A stretch of DNA of 62,404 bases from an uncultured Sphingomonas sp. (GTDB lineage: Bacteria; Pseudomonadota; Alphaproteobacteria; Sphingomonadales; Sphingomonadaceae), in contig CBIHLI010000001.1 in the NCBI GenBank assembly GCA_966210575.1, positions 1-62,404 on the forward strand. Direction: 5' to 3'. The translations under genes and the position numbers were made by a program. A model generated the notes under the pieces. That model did no database searches, had not been told where the DNA came from, and saw nothing but the letters and a program-made list of their open reading frames with translations. The first letter of the stretch is position 1. Each line of letters begins with the position of its first letter. Below, piece by piece: positions 3,542 through 25,843 of this stretch.

Positions 3542-4068
3542 GATCGGATATCCGTCGTCGCATAGGACGGCCGCGCCGGACGGATCGCCTCGGCACAGGT
3601 TCGGAGCGACGCCGCCGCCATCTCAATTTCCACCGCCTGGTCGAAGAAGCCGTGATCGCGGATCCGCCGGGCCACTTCGAGCGACTCGGCGATGGCGTTG
3701 TCGATCGCCCGGGCGCCGCCGGCCAGCGCGTCGTGCCGCTCCTTCGCCGCCAGCTCCGCGGCGCCGAGAGCGTTGCCGGAATATGAGGTGGATACCTTCG
3801 GGGCTTCGTCGCCGCGCCGGCCCTTCCGGAAATCGTCCATCGACCAGGCGATTTCCTCGGCCTCCGCGGACTGCATCAGCTCGAGCTTGCGCTTCTCCGG
3901 CGTCCAGTCGGTCGACGCGAACACGCGCTGGCGGTTCTTCTGGGCCCATTCGCGCACCAGGTCCGGTGCCAGCGGATCACGGCCCCAGAGCGTGAATTTC
4001 GGCTCTTCCGGCGCGGCTTTGGTCTCGGCCAGGACGTCGAAGGCGCCCGGTTGCTGCTTTGTGTTCAT
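3538..4068 (-). CDS. Hypothetical phage protein
   Basis: EPKFTLWGRDPLAP..W motif reminiscent of small phage proteins; coupled overlaps. Confidence 0.7.
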   Translation of the reverse strand: MNTKQQPGAFDVLAETKAAPEEPKFTLWGRDPLAPDLVREWAQKNRQRVFASTDWTPEKRKLELMQSAEAEEIAWSMDDFRKGRRGDEAPKVSTSYSGNALGAAELAAKERHDALAGGARAIDNAIAESLEVARRIRDHGFFDQAVEIEMAAASLRTCAEAIRPARPSYATTDIRS

Positions 4069-10208: not shown

Positions 10209-10534
10209 CGGCTGCGCCTTTTCGGGCGGCCGCCTTGGCAGCTGTTGCACATGACCGTCTCGTCCTTCTTGGCGAGACGGTGATTGGCATGAAGGTCGAT
10301 GAAGCGGCCGCAGAGGTATCGCTCCGCAGTGCCAGGAGCGTGGGAAACATATGCCCGAGCTCGATGCTTCTCGGGCCGTCCGCGGCGTGGGAGCCGACTA
10401 CGCCACTTGCTGACGCGCGACCCCAGCCTGGGTCGCGGCTCGCTTTCGACGATCCTGGAGGGAATAGAGGCGAAACGGACGCCGGCGAGAAGCCCAGCGA
10501 CCGCAGCGGCCATCATTCGTGAACGATTGAACAT
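10205..10534 (-). CDS. Hypothetical basic protein
   Basis: TGATG overlap with the stop of the Tas-like gene. Confidence 0.5.
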   Translation of the reverse strand: MFNRSRMMAAAVAGLLAGVRFASIPSRIVESEPRPRLGSRVSKWRSRLPRRGRPEKHRARAYVSHAPGTAERYLCGRFIDLHANHRLAKKDETVMCNSCQGGRPKRRSR

Positions 10535-11625
10535 CAGGCGCGCCTCCATGCTGCCCAGAGGTCCCGGAGCAGGCGTTTCTCGATAAACCGCTTGGCGCGG
10601 GCGTGGATGATGCAGTCGCGCTCGACGCCAGCGGCGATTTCGTGGGCGCGACGGTCGATGTAGAGCTGCCCGTACGGGCCGACGGCGTGGCGTTTGCCGT
10701 CCTTCGGATTACGGATCTGCTGTTTCAGGATGGACTCGCCGATGTTCCACATCAGGGAGCGGCGGCGAGGGACGTAGCCCTGAAGGATCGCGGCATCGCC
10801 TGCGACGCGACGCTGGCGCTCGCCATCGAACACCGCCAATCCCATGCGCTTCCAGAGCGCAGAGACGGTCTTGAATTCGCCTGGGCCGATGAGGCGATCC
10901 GCATCGTCAAGCGCTCGAGCTGCGCATTCGCCGACGATCATAGCCAAGAAGCGCGTTGAAAGACCGGGCACGCCTGCGGCCCATCCAGCGACGGGCAACT
11001 GCCCGCCGAGCATGGCGAGCTTCTTCTCTTCGATCGCGATCGCCTGGACCAACGGCTCCATCGCGGCGTGATACGGCGCCAGCCAGGCCATCACTTCCGG
11101 GGTGGGCGCGCGGTACAGCTTCGCGCCGGCCTCCTTGTCGCCGCCGCTGACGCGACGGCACACGGACATCGCCTGAAGCAGGACCCGCTGATGCGCTTGA
11201 CGCAGATCGTCGTAACGTCGCTTGGTTTCGCTGATTTCGCCGATGAGAGCGGAATATATTTGGGCAGCGCCGAGAATATGGCCCTCATCGGCTCCGCCAG
11301 TGGCGGAAGGGGTGGTCGCAGGCATGGGGGACCTGGCTTTCGACCGCTTAGAGGCCTGCGACCTCGCGCCGGAGCGCGAATTAGGTGCCCGAGGCGCGGT
11401 CCCACCGGGTGCCGGAGTCATTGAGGCCTCGGGCTGCACAGCCTTGCGGCTGCGCGATTTCTGGCGGGGCGCTCCAGGACTGGTTTTCGCTGCTGACCCG
11501 GCCCCGCCCACGGCCGAAGCCGCGATCTCCTGAACTTGGTCGAAGCTACGGTCGAAATGCTGCCGCACCCGCTCCGTCGACACCGCGGCCGCTTTTTCGA
11601 ATTCGCCGAAATTCTCAATGAGCAT
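10534..11625 (-). CDS. Nop/IS110-related RNA-binding domain protein, TasA-like (no nuclease domain)
   Basis: Coiled-coil then VPGLS..LAMIVGE, F.TVSALWKRMGL, Y..RR..E, HARAKRFIEKRLLRDLW; no RuvC/DEDD, HNH or IS110 catalytic SG seen; GGAGG RBS before ATG 11625; associated guide array. Confidence 0.82.
   Translation of the reverse strand: MLIENFGEFEKAAAVSTERVRQHFDRSFDQVQEIAASAVGGAGSAAKTSPGAPRQKSRSRKAVQPEASMTPAPGGTAPRAPNSRSGARSQASKRSKARSPMPATTPSATGGADEGHILGAAQIYSALIGEISETKRRYDDLRQAHQRVLLQAMSVCRRVSGGDKEAGAKLYRAPTPEVMAWLAPYHAAMEPLVQAIAIEEKKLAMLGGQLPVAGWAAGVPGLSTRFLAMIVGECAARALDDADRLIGPGEFKTVSALWKRMGLAVFDGERQRRVAGDAAILQGYVPRRRSLMWNIGESILKQQIRNPKDGKRHAVGPYGQLYIDRRAHEIAAGVERDCIIHARAKRFIEKRLLRDLWAAWRRA
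11239..11524 (-). ncRNA. Stem-loop TIGR-like guide RNA array, 4 units
   Basis: Units at 11463-11508, 11387-11434, 11314-11363 and 11239-11292, each a 7-11 bp stem enclosing CCN-N9-YG-N4-CCN-N9-YG; period 75/72/73 nt; small hairpins between units. Confidence 0.85.
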
Positions 11626-12187
11626 TGGCTTCCTCCCACAGCTTGGCGAGAGTGGCCTCGCTAAGGGTGCTGCCAATCGGAGCGTCAACCGGCCCGTTCT
11701 TTTCGGCCGCGGCGGCGACAGCTTCCTGCCAGCGTGACTGGAGAGCCATCGAACGAGAAGCGATCTTGTAACTTGAAGCACTCTCCCGGACCTCTGCGGG
11801 AGTGGCGTTGCGGATCGGCTTTCCGCCGTAGATCGGCATGTCCATGAAACGGCGGAGCTCGTTGCTCATCGCCTCCGCCAGACCGGGACTCGATCGCGCG
11901 ACCGAAGCAGATTTGATGATGGACTCGCGGCGCGCTCGAAGAACCGCGCGCACCTGGTCTCGGCACCATTGCTCGACCACGGTCGCGAGATGCTCTCGCA
12001 TCAGATCGGGAGATGCGAGCAGCTTGCGACTCAGCGCGGCAGCTGCGGCGTCGATGTCGTCGTTGGTATCTTCCAGCGCAGCGGCGGCGAGCTCTCGCGC
12101 CGTGTCCAGCGGCGCGGCGGCACGCTTCTGGGCTTCAGGCGATGTTTGGCCGCGCCGGCTGGACTCCAAAACTTGTGTTGCTGACAA
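11615..12187 (-). CDS. Hypothetical protein, putative Tas partner; first gene of leftward operon
   Basis: TTG start behind GGGGAG; stop overlaps start of the Tas-like gene; contains a guide unit. Confidence 0.75.
   Translation of the reverse strand: MSATQVLESSRRGQTSPEAQKRAAAPLDTARELAAAALEDTNDDIDAAAAALSRKLLASPDLMREHLATVVEQWCRDQVRAVLRARRESIIKSASVARSSPGLAEAMSNELRRFMDMPIYGGKPIRNATPAEVRESASSYKIASRSMALQSRWQEAVAAAAEKNGPVDAPIGSTLSEATLAKLWEEANAH
12104..12164 (-). ncRNA. Single TIGR-like guide unit
   Basis: gtccagc(c)ggcgcgg-CCA-aacatcgcc-TG-aagc-CCA-gaagcgtgc-CG-ccgcgcc-gctggac. Confidence 0.8.
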
Positions 12188-12261: not shown

Positions 12262-12723
12262 CTAAAGCCCAATGCTGGCACAGCCGGTTTCGAAGATATC
12301 TATTGCTCGGTCGGAGCCGGTCAGATCAAAGGTGAGATCGACGTTCGCGCCCCGATAATCGGTTGCTCTCACAGCCATGGTGCGCGACCGCGCGATGGCT
12401 TCTATGAGCGGACCGGCATCGTTCAGAAGAACAACAAAGCGACCAGTATGGCCCCAATTCGCCGCGATCGATGGTTGCTGATCGAATCGAACAAGCACCT
12501 CGCGAAGGATAGGCCTTCCCCCCAGATGACGTCCCATGTCGACGGTGATCTGACGCCCGCCACTTCGGCTGCCTGAATCGCACACGATAAGCATCGCGCC
12601 CGGCGGGTTGTTCAACGTGACGGAGACCTTTCTGGCGTCCGTCATTGGGTCTGAGTCGTGAGCTATGTGCCACCGATCGGCAGGGGCGGCCGAGGACATT
12701 GCTAAAAGTGCTGCAATAATCAT
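12262..12723 (-). CDS. Exported protein co-transcribed with repressor
   Basis: Signal-peptide-like N-terminus, DPMTD motif; ATGA overlap with cI stop. Confidence 0.7.
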   Translation of the reverse strand: MIIAALLAMSSAAPADRWHIAHDSDPMTDARKVSVTLNNPPGAMLIVCDSGSRSGGRQITVDMGRHLGGRPILREVLVRFDQQPSIAANWGHTGRFVVLLNDAGPLIEAIARSRTMAVRATDYRGANVDLTFDLTGSDRAIDIFETGCASIGL

Positions 12724-13394
12724 CTGTAACGCCTTCCAAACCAAACGACGCGGCCCTTGATGTCGATTTCCTCGAGGAGACGTTCTTCGGGATCGTATCG
12801 AGGGTTCTCGCTCATCACCTTCACTTTTACCGGATCCGAGCCGTATATACGCTGAAGGTATTTGACGACATAGCCATCACCTTCCCACAGGCAAAACGGT
12901 CCAGGCTGAGCCAGGCTGCGCTTCCTCGTATCGATCAGCAGCTGGTCCCCGTCCTGAAAGACCGGCTGCATTGAGTCTCCGTCGATCTCGATGAGCAACA
13001 AATCCGCGGGCGGTACATTGAGCTCTCGCACAAGGCTGCCAGAGAAGGCGCGCTTCTGAAGATCGCCTTCGCCGCTGCCTGGCCCGCCAGCGCCGGCATA
13101 AGTCGGCAGCATATCAACCATCACCAGATCATCGCCGGTGTTGATTGTCAGGATCGGGTCGTGGTGCGTCTCTTCGTCCGCTGCCTCGATCGCCTTCCTC
13201 ACATAACGCATCCATTGGGGCACGCGCTTCGCGTGCGGCTGCTCGAAATTCGAGACAGACTGTTGCTTCAGCTTTATCTCGACGCCTTCCTCGAATGCGA
13301 AAGCCCGCGCTCGATTGGCAACGTCAGCAGTCGACCACCCTAAGCGGTCTCGCTCCTCGCGGAGCCAGCGTTTTACCTCCTCAACGTTCTCCAT
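12720..13394 (-). CDS. cI: CI-like repressor (HTH + S24 peptidase)
   Basis: N-terminal HTH (QQSVSNFE), AG cleavage-site candidate, GDSMQP and VVK catalytic Ser/Lys; divergent from cro. Confidence 0.9.
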   Translation of the reverse strand: MENVEEVKRWLREERDRLGWSTADVANRARAFAFEEGVEIKLKQQSVSNFEQPHAKRVPQWMRYVRKAIEAADEETHHDPILTINTGDDLVMVDMLPTYAGAGGPGSGEGDLQKRAFSGSLVRELNVPPADLLLIEIDGDSMQPVFQDGDQLLIDTRKRSLAQPGPFCLWEGDGYVVKYLQRIYGSDPVKVKVMSENPRYDPEERLLEEIDIKGRVVWFGRRYR

Positions 13395-13407
13395 GCCGCT
13401 TTGAGGT

Positions 13408-13466
13408 ACAAAAGATTTGGGGAGGCCGCTCCTACAAAACTCTTGTTGCCTGCACAAAACTATTGT
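13408..13466. promoter_or_regulatory. OR-like region, three ACAA-N5-TTG(T/G) operators
   Basis: 13408-13420, 13434-13446 and 13454-13466 between divergent cI and cro. Confidence 0.75.
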
Positions 13467-13479
13467 AGCTGAGCCGGTC

Positions 13480-13707
13480 ATGAGCCATGAAGCCCTGAAG
13501 CGTGCGCTCGCCAAGGCAGACGACAATCAGTCGAAATTTGCCGAAGCGATTGGCACCTCTCAACAGCGCATCTCGTATCTGCTGAAGAACGAGAAGCCGC
13601 TCCCTGCCGAGCTGGTCCTACGGACGGAAGAAGTGTTCGGGATTCCCCGTCACGAGCTGCGTCCCGACATCTATCCAGCGCCTGAAGCCGTGAAGTCGGC
13701 AGCATGA
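13480..13707 (+). CDS. cro: Cro-like (YdaS family) regulator
   Basis: NQSKFAEAIGTSQQRIS HTH and ELRPDIY signature. Confidence 0.88.
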   Translation: MSHEALKRALAKADDNQSKFAEAIGTSQQRISYLLKNEKPLPAELVLRTEEVFGIPRHELRPDIYPAPEAVKSAA

Positions 13708-23070: not shown

Positions 23071-23739
23071 ATGCGCCTCCCGAGCGACCCCGGCGCCCGG
23101 CTTGAGCTCTTGCTCGCCGCCCGGAAGCAGATCGGGCGCAAGAAGATCCTGCTCAACGCCGAGGAAATGGCCGGCGCCGCCGGCATGAGCTGGCGAAACC
23201 TGAAAACGATCATCGATCGGGATCCCGAGTTCCCGGTCAAGCGGCGAGGCTCCGAAGGGGTCCCGTGGGAATTCGAGGCCGCGAAGGCGCTCGACAGGAT
23301 GATTGCAACGGCTCGGGCGGTGATAGCCGACCGCGAGCGGCGGAAGGCGCGAGCGGCGTCTCTTGCCGGAATTCGATCGTCCGGTTCGGCCAGTTTCCCC
23401 GCCGGCTCGGCGAACCCCCCGGGTTCCGGCTCCGCTGCCCGCGAGATGCTCGAGGATGCTCGGGCGATCAACGCCCTGGTCGACGCCCAGACCAAGATGA
23501 GAATCGAGCGGCAGAAGCAGCGCGAGCTGCTCGAGCGCTCGGAAGTCGAAAGCCTGGCCTGGGACATGATGACGACAATGCAGGCGGAGACGATGGCGAT
23601 TTCGTCGAAGCTCGATCCGGCCGGCCGCTGGGACCCGTCATTCCGCCGAGAGGTCGAGGACGAGCTGGGCAACGTCCTGGTCACGGTCCGTAGCCGGCTG
23701 GAACGGCGCATCGAGAAATGGAATGCTGCCAAGCATTGA
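23071..23739 (+). CDS. Terminase small subunit (Nu1-like)
   Basis: HTH plus RGSEGVPWEF, coiled coil, directly before terL. Confidence 0.8.
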   Translation: MRLPSDPGARLELLLAARKQIGRKKILLNAEEMAGAAGMSWRNLKTIIDRDPEFPVKRRGSEGVPWEFEAAKALDRMIATARAVIADRERRKARAASLAGIRSSGSASFPAGSANPPGSGSAAREMLEDARAINALVDAQTKMRIERQKQRELLERSEVESLAWDMMTTMQAETMAISSKLDPAGRWDPSFRREVEDELGNVLVTVRSRLERRIEKWNAAKH

Positions 23740-25843
23740 GGCCCTGGAGGCCGAGCTCGAGCAGCTGGCATCGGGCGAATTTCTCTGCCGTGTCGGACCG
23801 ATCGTCGCCGATGCGGTGCAGTTGCTTACGCCGCCGGAACGCATCTCGACGACGGAATGCGCCGCCAAATATCGACTGATCCCGCATAAGGTCGGTCGCG
23901 GGGCGTCGCTCTGGGATCCGGAGCTGACGCCGTTCATCAATGGAATTCAGGACGCGCTCGACGATCCCGAAGTCGGGCTGGTGATCGTTCCAAAGCCCGG
24001 CCGCGTCGGCGGCACGATCGCGGCGGAAAACCACCTGTTCAAGCTGATGAAGTTCGGGCCGTTGCCAGACGTGCTCTGGTATCTGCCCAGCGACAGCGAG
24101 CGGGACAGCTATGTCGATCGCCACGTCGCCAAGATGTTCGAGCTTCACGCCGACGTCCGGGCCAAGATCGGTTCCGGCAAATCGGACAACAAGCTGGCGC
24201 GCAAGAAGCTCGCTGGGCGGCTGATCGAGTGGCTGCAGCTCAATTCCCGGACGGTGACCGGGCGCGACGCCGGGTTCATCGTCGGCGACGAGATCGATGC
24301 CGCCAACAAGAAGCTGGTGCCGTCATTCGTCGACCAGGTGAAAACCCGCGGCACGACGGCCGGCACGCGCTTCAAGGGCTATCTCTGCAGCCACATGGAT
24401 CGCGGCTGGACGAGCGGCGTCGCCGCGGCCTGGAAGGAATCGAGCCGGGGCATCTGGTACATGCCGTGCCCTCATTGCAGGGGCTGGGCCAGCCCATGCC
24501 CGACGGCAGCCGACGGGCATCGCTGGATGCTCGATTATGAGAGGCTCCGCAATGTGAGCGACGACGAGATGCTAGATCACGTCGAAGCCAGCGCCGGGCT
24601 GAAATGCCCGCACTGCGGTAAGAAGGCCGCCGACGTCCACAAGCCGGCGATGCTGCTCAGCGGCAAGTGGGTGCACGAGGGACAGTCGATCGACCGCAAG
24701 GGCCGAGTCATCGGCGAGCCGCGATCGAAGCGAGTGATGGGTTTCTGGATCCACGGCTCGATGTCGCCCTGGGTGCCATGGAGCGATCTCGCGCGTCGCT
24801 ACGTCAGCGCGGTGCTCGTGTTCGAGCGGACGAAGAAATCGGAACGGCTCCGCGAGGTCACCGCCAAGGTGCTCGGCGAGGTCTATGAAGGCGCAGGCGA
24901 GGGCGCGAAGGCCATCGATCCGGTCCGGCTGAGACAGCGGGCGGAAGCAGCGACGCAGATCGAGCGGTTTGTCGCAGGCACCGTGCCTTCCGACGTCTGG
25001 TTCGTCACCGCGGCGGTCGACGTCGGCCACCGGAAGTTCGACGTCATGATCCTCGGCTGGGATCTCGAGGGCCGATCCTGGGTGATCGAGCGCTTCACCA
25101 TCACGACGCGGCGCGTCGGAAGCCGGGACATCGACATCCGGCCGGCAGAGCGGATCGAGGACTGGTCCGTGCTCGAGGACCAGGTGCTGAAGCGGGAGCT
25201 GGTTGTTCTCGACGATCCGACGATGTTGATGCCGATCGCCGGCGTCGCCATCGACACCGGCGACGGCCATGTCACCTGGAAGGCCCGCGAGTTCGCTCGC
25301 CGGATGGCGCGAAAGGGTCATTTCTGGGGGAAGGCTTCGCAGCCCTGGCACAAGGTCCGGCTGATCAAGGGTGCGAAATCGCCGACGGCCCCGGAGCTTC
25401 CGCCGAAGGGCCGCGACGTCAATGTCGACGAGGAAGGCCGGAAGGTGACGCCAGTCCTGCTCGAATGGGACGTCGGCGTTCACAAGCTGAAGTCGCTCAC
25501 GGTCGAGCGTCTCGCCGAGACCGAGGGAGGACCAGGCCAGGTGACCTTCGCCGAGGGTCTGCCCGCCTCGACGTTCGAAGAATTTGCCGGAGAGGTGCTG
25601 ATCGACGGCGCCTGGGAGCGGCGGGGCCCGAACGAGAGCCTCGATCTCCACGGCTATAACGAAATCGTCCGGCTCCAGTTGAGGCCGGACCGCAGGGAGA
25701 TCGATTGGGAGAACCGTCCACCGATCTGGGCGAGGCCGGTGCCTGCCGAGGTTGAGACGATCCCTGAATTAGAGACATCCGAACCGGTAGCTTCGACGAA
25801 GCGATCGGCACTGGAGAGAATGGCGGCGCTGAACCGCCGCTGA
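23723..25843 (+). CDS. Terminase large subunit (GpA family)
   Basis: GDEID Walker B, CPHC x2, TAAVDVG, IDTGDG, NESLD. Confidence 0.93.
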   Translation: MLPSIEALEAELEQLASGEFLCRVGPIVADAVQLLTPPERISTTECAAKYRLIPHKVGRGASLWDPELTPFINGIQDALDDPEVGLVIVPKPGRVGGTIAAENHLFKLMKFGPLPDVLWYLPSDSERDSYVDRHVAKMFELHADVRAKIGSGKSDNKLARKKLAGRLIEWLQLNSRTVTGRDAGFIVGDEIDAANKKLVPSFVDQVKTRGTTAGTRFKGYLCSHMDRGWTSGVAAAWKESSRGIWYMPCPHCRGWASPCPTAADGHRWMLDYERLRNVSDDEMLDHVEASAGLKCPHCGKKAADVHKPAMLLSGKWVHEGQSIDRKGRVIGEPRSKRVMGFWIHGSMSPWVPWSDLARRYVSAVLVFERTKKSERLREVTAKVLGEVYEGAGEGAKAIDPVRLRQRAEAATQIERFVAGTVPSDVWFVTAAVDVGHRKFDVMILGWDLEGRSWVIERFTITTRRVGSRDIDIRPAERIEDWSVLEDQVLKRELVVLDDPTMLMPIAGVAIDTGDGHVTWKAREFARRMARKGHFWGKASQPWHKVRLIKGAKSPTAPELPPKGRDVNVDEEGRKVTPVLLEWDVGVHKLKSLTVERLAETEGGPGQVTFAEGLPASTFEEFAGEVLIDGAWERRGPNESLDLHGYNEIVRLQLRPDRREIDWENRPPIWARPVPAEVETIPELETSEPVASTKRSALERMAALNRR

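Follow-up and report, generated by a model that had tools for sequence, protein, structure and literature searches.

Can one stretch of DNA serve at once as an array of guide RNAs and as coding sequence of the protein that uses them? This question is raised by a 62,404-nt stretch of contig CBIHLI010000001.1 (hereafter the window), the minus strand of which carries tasA and, within the reading frame of this very gene, four tigRNA units. The product of tasA is, judging from profile matches and a structural model, a stem-loop-type, nuclease-free TIGR-Tas effector, TasA. Our answer is that the leader that spans the array is very probably translated from the ATG at 11625, and that the transcript would be both the TasA mRNA and the precursor of the guides, with the start pinned by translational coupling to the upstream gene and with the array-encoded peptide most likely being a tolerated passenger. 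To this reading as a whole we assign a probability of roughly 0.6. An earlier note, made from the letters of the window alone, had proposed dual coding for guides and protein, and the comparison with related loci described below argues for it.

TasA and the open frame across its array

The assignment of the protein follows from two kinds of comparison. Namely, a profile of 78 homologues matched only two sequences of the PDB at E≤1, those of TaTasR (9mty, E = 4.8e-19) and TasH (21kl, E = 8e-4), and in a Foldseek search with the AlphaFold2 model of the 238-residue core all 10 hits at E≤0.001 were TasR or TasH structures, the best of them with a template modeling (TM) score of 0.67. The core is made up of a coiled-coil and a Nop domain, homologous to those of Tas proteins. 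A RuvC or HNH nuclease domain is absent, the 125 residues before the core consisting of 38 ordinary and 87 low-complexity ones, and the sole Pfam match of TasA is a sub-threshold low-complexity match. The chain stops directly after its last helix, whereas TaTasR runs 35 residues past the matched stretch, and the C-terminal Y/H processing loop is absent, as it is from stem-loop clades according to the text of Xu et al. (10.64898/2026.09.09.750476). We also considered an IS110/IS1111 recombinase with a bridge or seek RNA and rejected it: there is no globular N-terminal (RuvC-like DEDD) domain, and IS110 structures reached TM scores of 0.42-0.49, below those of the Tas proteins. A PHROG family labelled as a transposase matches the C-terminal half of TasA only. 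By analogy with its relatives, TasA is predicted to be an RNA-guided DNA binder.

The four units between 11508 and 11239 lie in frame, each within a stem of 7-11 bp, and follow the pattern CC(A/T/G)-9 nt-(T/C)G-4 nt-CC(A/G)-9 nt-(T/C)G, that is, box C, spacer and box D, twice. All four units named in the earlier note were recovered, together with a fifth that it had overlooked (12157-12110), at the 5' end of the upstream gene. Only these five of the 39 loose matches to the pattern in the window have a stem of at least 7 bp. All five have 9-nt spacers, and their stems differ in sequence; repeat finders run on the window detected no tandem or direct repeat family across the units, and Rfam gave no match to the array at the gathering score. 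The array region folds with z = -3.4, none of 100 shuffled sequences folding equally well.

Where, then, does the protein begin? The minus-strand frame is open from the ATG at 11625 to the stop at 10534, through all four units, while the other two minus-strand frames contain 1 and 5 stops over 11239-11625. Among 21 in-frame candidates between 11781 and 11163 (ATG, GTG, TTG, CTG, ATT, ATC and ATA codons were scored), ATG 11625 has the best pairing with the anti-Shine-Dalgarno sequence, -10.2 kcal/mol, the next being -7.0, and it overlaps the stop of the upstream gene by 11 nt. The start proposed in the earlier note, upstream of the array and served by a GGAGG ribosome binding site, is thereby supported, as is its statement that no ATG lies between the last unit and the first helix; the next one after the array, ATG 11169, lies inside helix 1 and would remove 27 of its predicted residues. 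The low-complexity leader of about 130 residues that it described stands in part: the leader is there, at 125 residues, and residues 39-125 are indeed low in complexity and encoded by the array, whereas residues 1-38 resemble the core in G+C content by codon position and in hydrophobic content.

Could the array instead be a 5' untranslated or intergenic RNA? TasA would then start at ATG 11421, at ATG 11325 or, near 11244, at a codon other than AUG, and its open frame would be a by-product of high G+C content. In the window alone an open leader has p = 0.0425 in a mononucleotide shuffle and stop-free spacers have p = 0.35; two in-frame ATGs do lie in the array, and two of seven members of the cluster have been called from them. 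Against this stand the Shine-Dalgarno pairing, by far the best at ATG 11625 and weak at both array ATGs (-5.9 at 11421 and -4.4 at 11325), and the coding-type composition of codons 1-38. Because the window alone gives weak p-values, support for a translated array comes from its relatives.

Frame, phase and spacing of arrays in related loci

We gathered 186 related loci (70 viral, 36 from genomes and 80 from metagenomes) which, together with the window, form 134 clusters at 80% core identity, 109 of them evaluable, in that the start of the core could be defined and 150 nt or more of upstream sequence was available. Units were detected with a fixed 9-4-9 geometry and a stem of at least 7 bp, and of the units so reported in 740,527 bp of related loci, 577 were on the strand of tas and 2 on the other. 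A proximal array, defined as a chain of units by position alone, was present in 54 of the 109 clusters; the other 55 should not be taken as array-free, since units of another geometry or with a weaker stem escape the detector.

The Tas frame is stop-free across the upstream array in 45 of these 54 clusters, compared with 8 and 16 for the other two frames, and for arrays of at least four units the corresponding numbers are 20 of 23 versus 0 and 4. The spacers point in the same direction: stops wholly within spacers make up 7 of 888 triplets in the Tas frame and 87 of 2,122 in the other frames (Fisher p = 2e-7), and 48 of the 54 loci are free of spacer-overlapping stops where 27.4 ± 3.3 would be expected upon resampling spacers from non-coding units. 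Moreover, the units keep to certain phases. Box C falls in phases 0, 1 and 2 in 14, 76 and 125 cases in proximal arrays, compared with 20, 24 and 21 downstream of the stop and 47, 51 and 42 upstream of the open frame (over all units in open frames the numbers are 9, 128 and 164, a count that is partly circular). Phase 0 is the one in which box D and a following A become TGA: of the 208 units outside open frames, 116 would contain a stop in phase 0, and 49 and 59 in the other two phases. Finally, for 94 of 159 unit pairs inside the frame the spacing is divisible by 3, which holds for 34 of 101 pairs outside it. In other words, spacers appear to avoid stops and to keep frame, much as had been suggested for this array.

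Leader length varies as well: among homologues the leaders are 16-243 codons long, starting from the coupled start discussed below, and their length tracks the number of units (rho = 0.62). In at least 31 of the 54 loci, box C of the last unit is found 31-55 nt before the core. That said, 208 of the 509 units detected in relatives are not within the open tas frame at all.

Several individual loci deserve mention in their own right. Two in-frame arrays of ten units, L003 2400-2960 and L004 2360-2925, alternate between phases 1 and 2 with spacings of 55 and 56 nt, which gives a two-unit period of 111 nt (37 codons), and the proteins P0050 and P0051 differ in length by a single two-unit block of 39 residues. 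In 30 of the 109 clusters (for example L001, L004 and L109) an in-frame C-terminal tail, beginning at the end of the last helix, also holds units; the window has none there. In L072, at about 3700-3760, a translated leader stretch, EWCRLEDSNPSPPDYKSGALPNELSR, may resemble the opposite strand of a tRNA gene, in frame.

A further feature of the units in tasA is a hairpin of 6-8 bp abutting the 5' arm of every one of them. In the clade, 97 of 505 units have such an accessory hairpin on the 5' side and 9 on the 3' side, and 49 of 64 of its tetraloops are of the GNRA or UNCG type. It is a lineage-specific feature, found on at least half of the units in 15 of 79 multi-unit loci and on none in 37.

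Table 1. Features of the tasA locus and of its surroundings, in window coordinates.
Feature	Position	Strand	Remarks
tasA open reading frame	10534..11625	-	363 aa; leader of 125 aa followed by coiled-coil and Nop core, without nuclease domain; chain ends directly after last helix
Structured TasA core	10537..11250	-	238 aa; AlphaFold2 mean predicted local distance difference test (pLDDT) 96.6; TM 0.67 to TaTasR 9mty
Leader codons 1-38	11512..11625	-	nearly all 5' of array; G+C by codon position 0.66/0.37/0.74 vs core 0.70/0.48/0.80
Shine-Dalgarno GGAGG	11632..11636	-	6 nt before ATG 11625; within last codons of upstream gene
tigRNA unit 1	11463..11508	-	box C 11501; spacers 11498-11490, 11480-11472; phase 1
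tigRNA unit 2	11387..11434	-	box C 11426; spacers 11423-11415, 11405-11397; phase 1; in-frame ATG 11421 in spacer A
tigRNA unit 3	11314..11363	-	box C 11354; spacers 11351-11343, 11333-11325; phase 1; ATG 11325 overlaps last box D
tigRNA unit 4	11239..11292	-	box C 11281; spacers 11278-11270, 11260-11252; phase 2; 3' arm encodes A-L-I-G, the first four core residues
tigRNA unit 5	12110..12157	-	box C 12149; phase 2; in frame in partner gene N-terminus; without accessory hairpin
Accessory hairpin 1	11509..11524	-	6 bp, UUCG loop; abuts 5' arm of unit 1
Accessory hairpin 2	11436..11455	-	8 bp, GCAA loop
Accessory hairpin 3	11364..11379	-	6 bp, UCCG loop
Accessory hairpin 4	11293..11307	-	6 bp, 3-nt loop (ACU); CUU-containing single strand before it
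Conserved unnamed partner gene	11615..12187	-	190 aa, TTG start, predicted all-helical; stop overlaps tasA ATG by 11 nt
CI-like and Cro-like repressors	12720-13707		

The partner gene, the coupled start and the role of the leader

The gene upstream of tasA, conserved and unnamed, which we refer to as the partner gene, is present in 140 of the 187 loci. Where 1.5 kb or more of upstream sequence is available (95 clusters), it stands beside tasA in 78, and it does so in all 36 of the closest ones; all four loci found by a partner query have tasA downstream, two of these being contigs whose TasA was already known from the homologue search. Searched against 1.84 billion representatives, its profile matches 1,992 protein clusters at E≤1e-10, and the structure model is all-helical (pLDDT 88.7, predicted TM score 0.45). 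Pfam has no family for it at E≤0.1, and PHROG has none for the window protein, with a weak hit in one of 68 members. By features the ESM Atlas returned only unnamed clusters, without a structure match above a TM score of 0.5; the best E-value in a BFVD fold search was 0.38, and the best VIA-align Z was 6.0, within the range of common helical arrangements. With the window partner as query, tblastn gave no match to the phage collection, though the partner profile later matched phage RHph_X2_25. A second partner query found no locus, and among 400 genomes of the phylum there was one weak partial match, with no tas nearby.

The geometry of the two genes suggests that the partner gene likely couples the translation of tasA. 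Namely, in 77 clusters the partner stop lies 30-800 nt before the core, and in 59 of them it is overlapped by an ATG or GTG. In 47 clusters the overlapping start shares the frame of Tas, with no stop before the core, and 36 of these 47 have a Shine-Dalgarno-like motif, while among 22 loci with an off-frame overlapping start the frame is open as far as the core in 5. In one group of close relatives the distance from partner stop to core ranges over 85-430 nt and yet leaves a remainder of 1 on division by 3 in all 14 loci, every one of which has an overlapping start. None of the 8 loci of a second group has such a start, and their distances are spread over all three remainders (both groups were chosen by eye from a list of locus pairs). 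A start within or after the array, as the untranslated-region reading would have it, is seen in 9 of the 54 related loci with proximal arrays. However, the invariant remainder in the first group, together with the clade-wide statistics of frame, phase and coupling, makes that reading highly improbable for the window.

Units in frame in the N-terminus of the partner itself are found in the window and in two other loci, L199 (1579) and L200 (2955), and any unit in or before the partner in 13 of 70 clusters. We regard in-frame units in the partner as exceptional, since none of 150 partner representatives carries the signature of translated units, which 47 of 119 Tas homologues do carry. One database entry for the partner, P0128, is a variant with 7 changes among its first 21 residues, 4 of them within unit 5, and 1 change elsewhere, and one of these changes appears to break the first box C of the partner-gene unit.

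How would such a locus work? In the reading we prefer, ribosomes leaving the partner gene would restart at ATG 11625 and unwind the hairpins as they proceed, whereby TasA would gain a disordered leader of variable length. As the start is pinned to the partner stop, accumulating units would survive only if they are stop-free and keep the frame. Other transcripts would probably be cut at their single-stranded linkers by a host RNase, TasA being without the C-terminal processing loop, and the accessory 5' hairpins would then probably cap the released guides and shield them. A TasA dimer loaded with a single guide, spacers A and B of which pair with opposite strands, would occupy an 18-bp site on double-stranded DNA and, leaving it uncut, would block transcription, by analogy with MbTasA, which represses transcription without cutting (Xu et al., section 12, 10.64898/2026.09.09.750476), and PlTasA, a TasA whose dimer binds double-stranded DNA through two 9-bp heteroduplexes (Guan et al., section 5, 10.64898/2026.08.11.744272). 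Such repression would probably be aimed at competing phages or at host genes. If tasA expression were subject to feedback, this would be incidental and not what the layout is for. That the peptide is a passenger is supported by the lack of conservation of leader sequence and leader length and by the many units outside the frame.

A number of observations weigh against this picture, or against parts of it. First, leader translation is deduced from sequence statistics, and the p-values quoted above overstate their case because the clusters are related, even though no spacer pair is shared between clusters. Second, 9 of the 54 proximal arrays are partly or wholly out of frame, with the last stop within or after the array and mostly a start codon after it, and a coupled in-frame start is absent in 30 of the 77 loci. 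Third, the avoidance of phase 0 (9 of 301 units) exceeds what the stop risk of a single unit would give (56% in phase 0 versus 24-28% in the others), and this excess needs inheritance by unit duplication or a further constraint. Fourth, residues 1-38 are protein-like and four relatives share a W-I-x-x-A/V-x-x-A-L motif in this stretch, neither of which a pure passenger would need. What is more, guides could arise from internal promoters, as the Discussion of Xu et al. (10.64898/2026.09.09.750476) points out, and the role as repressor is drawn from analogy, since no target was found.

One alternative is that the layout is selected for feedback: TasA would bind the box C/D hairpins on its own nascent mRNA and stall ribosomes or commit the message to processing, so that the amount of protein would be adjusted to that of guides. 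Any cut in the array would indeed separate the ribosome binding site from the core, and in the loci where its box C lies so close to the core, the last unit directly borders the first core helix or reaches into it. The units in C-terminal tails and in the partner N-terminus would fit as well, and Xu et al. themselves suggest, in section 5, a link between tigRNA maturation and Tas translation. That said, autoregulation follows only if binding by TasA slows translation or triggers cutting. Cutting catalysed by TasA is unlikely, given a chain that ends after its last helix and has no Y/H loop, and no guide matches its own locus on the DNA. Moreover, the system does not need the in-frame layout, since 208 of 509 units are out of frame and one group of eight loci has no coupled start. 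We therefore hold feedback as the purpose of the layout to be rather unlikely, if worth keeping in mind.

A second alternative gives the leader a function of its own, namely that of a short N-terminal helix on a variable tether that recruits the partner protein or another factor, as part of a two-protein TIGR system. The close association of the two genes, the coupled starts and the protein-like residues 1-38 are what one would expect of it. On the other hand, the N-termini differ widely over the 46 other coupled loci, leaders of only 16 codons exist, the recurring E-I-G may just be the translation of a linker-plus-stem RNA motif, and TasA proteins of other stem-loop systems acted as repressors of a reporter in E. 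coli when nothing but tas and a guide was supplied (Xu et al., sections 11-12). A functional leader thus seems very improbable. More speculatively, and with doubts on our part that are considerable, the clade could be a two-protein system in a broader sense, in which coupling forces translation of the array, TasA on its own hairpins switches the mRNA into a guide precursor, the partner is the missing accessory protein (serving the maturation of guides, repression or the acquisition of spacers) and mature guides retain their 5' tetraloop hairpins.

Targets, phage context and relation to known systems

Targets were sought in the form of spacer A joined to the reverse complement of spacer B, a form derived from the 8-nt 3' overhang described in Faure et al. 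(PMC12045711). In the own genome (1.47 Mb, 64% complete) none of the 5 guides has a site with at most 1 mismatch; the best, for unit 5, has 2, which a control form also reached, and the best in the window has 3. When all 509 units were compared with 1.10 Mb of loci and with the window, 2 hits with one mismatch resulted, three control forms giving 1, 6 and 5. Exact scans of IMG/VR covered 2 of the 5 guides: unit 2 gave no hit, and the 3 hits of unit 4, in contigs of 37-44% G+C and two of them near-identical, were judged to be chance. Two of the five guides were likewise run against 250 genomes of the host genus, where unit 3 gave no site (control 1), while unit 4 gave one 1-mismatch site in 2 genomes and one 2-mismatch site (control 0). 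The 1-mismatch site of unit 4 (L194 557-574) was not accepted as a target and is probably a chance match. It is intragenic, and the contigs from the two genomes, G630 and G115, are 93% identical. The protein encoded there is, we presume, a spermidine-synthase-type methyltransferase, and tblastn detected no counterpart of the gene in the partial assembly to which the window belongs. Overall, no natural target was found in the collections searched, each large collection having been covered with some of the guides.

By its gene content, the window is a temperate phage of the lambdoid type. RecT-like and exonuclease genes lie to the left of the repressors, and helicase, terminase, portal, capsid and endolysin genes to the right, tasA sitting within the leftward gene run behind the repressor. 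The phage host is likely a sphingomonad, since the closest named TasA homologues are from Sphingopyxis, Erythrobacter and Novosphingobium; the G+C content of the window contig is 0.646, that of most other contigs of its 64%-complete bin 0.635-0.684. Four DNA runs, which may be the source of the assembly, contain the whole stretch, with one substitution and no array variants; no RNA dataset was listed as containing it. In none of the 200 related genomes searched was tasA found, and a sigma-70 scan found no promoter on the tas strand. As side observations, the same leftward run includes a phage gene resembling acyl carrier protein (9853-9611, minus strand; PF00550, PHROG 5934), and genes resembling an ATP-dependent ligase, thymidylate synthase and a DNA methyltransferase lie at the right end of the contig (51530-54792 and 58665-62229, minus strand).

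What do these results add to what is known? The novelty of the in-frame layout, which the earlier note implied, does not hold: Xu et al. (bioRxiv, September 2026, 10.64898/2026.09.09.750476) describe in section 5 stem-loop units inside tas genes, at the 5' end, at the 3' end or internally, with the frame kept and in disordered regions, and the window is a further example of this arrangement. What the comparison adds is evidence for selection on intragenic TIGR arrays as protein-coding sequence, which bears on the question left open by Xu et al. of whether tas and guides share one transcript. The resulting rule of array growth (no in-frame stop, one phase avoided, length changes that preserve the frame) would bind any model of spacer acquisition, and the partner gene and the accessory 5' hairpin are candidates for the maturation route of stem-loop guides. 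A frame-selection test, the coupled start, the partner gene and the accessory hairpin were not found in the passages of Xu et al., Faure et al. or Guan et al. that we consulted, though the figures or supplements of the two preprints (Xu et al., Guan et al.) may show a partner or linker hairpins. Literature searches returned nothing on translational coupling of TIGR TasA or on autoregulation of TIGR-Tas, only Faure et al., on a loop repeat, for tigRNA tetraloops, and only Xu et al. for intragenic TasA or tigRNA.

The intragenic arrays of Xu et al., such as that of BlTasA from Bifidobacterium longum, share with the window the units in the tas coding sequence and a TasA without nuclease or Y/H loop; in BlTasA, however, the units lie in the wedge loop, as described there, while in the window they form an N-terminal leader. 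As for the CUU motif at the stem base that marks processing in the same work, one of the 3 window linkers contains it, as CTT, and so do 99 of the 277 linkers of the clade, both being raw counts. PlTasA (Faure et al.; Guan et al.) has its 13 units distributed over three subarrays, which the sections consulted do not describe as in-frame, and an N-terminal loop that is unresolved in its structure (Guan et al., section 5), whereas the window, a lambdoid phage, has 4 + 1 units, all inside reading frames; stem-loop arrays are processed to single units (Faure et al., Science 2025, section 9). TaTasR (PDB 9MTY) and SpTasH (PDB 21KL, 9W0x) have the same coiled-coil and Nop core and the same box C/D dual-spacer guide geometry, but also a RuvC or HNH domain, dual-repeat arrays, fixed 36-nt guides and a longer C-terminus, none of which the window protein has. 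Faure et al. (PMC12045711), who define the family, name as operon partner, in the portions consulted, only a ParB-like one. Their tasParB-tasA operons likewise join a second gene to tasA, sometimes with the array in between; these are dual-repeat loci, however, and the partner in the window looks different, being helical and without a Pfam match, with the array in the tasA frame. A cultured phage, Rhizobium phage RHph_X2_25 (MW960032.1), carries the same partner-tasA pair (QWY83252 and QWY83253, both annotated as hypothetical) beside its repressor gene, at 23652-25718 (L196). Of its six detected units, three lie in the annotated 5' end of tasA, two are intergenic and one follows the stop, and the tasA start is uncoupled from the partner stop. 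With the same gene pair in a cultured phage, the module is open to experiment.

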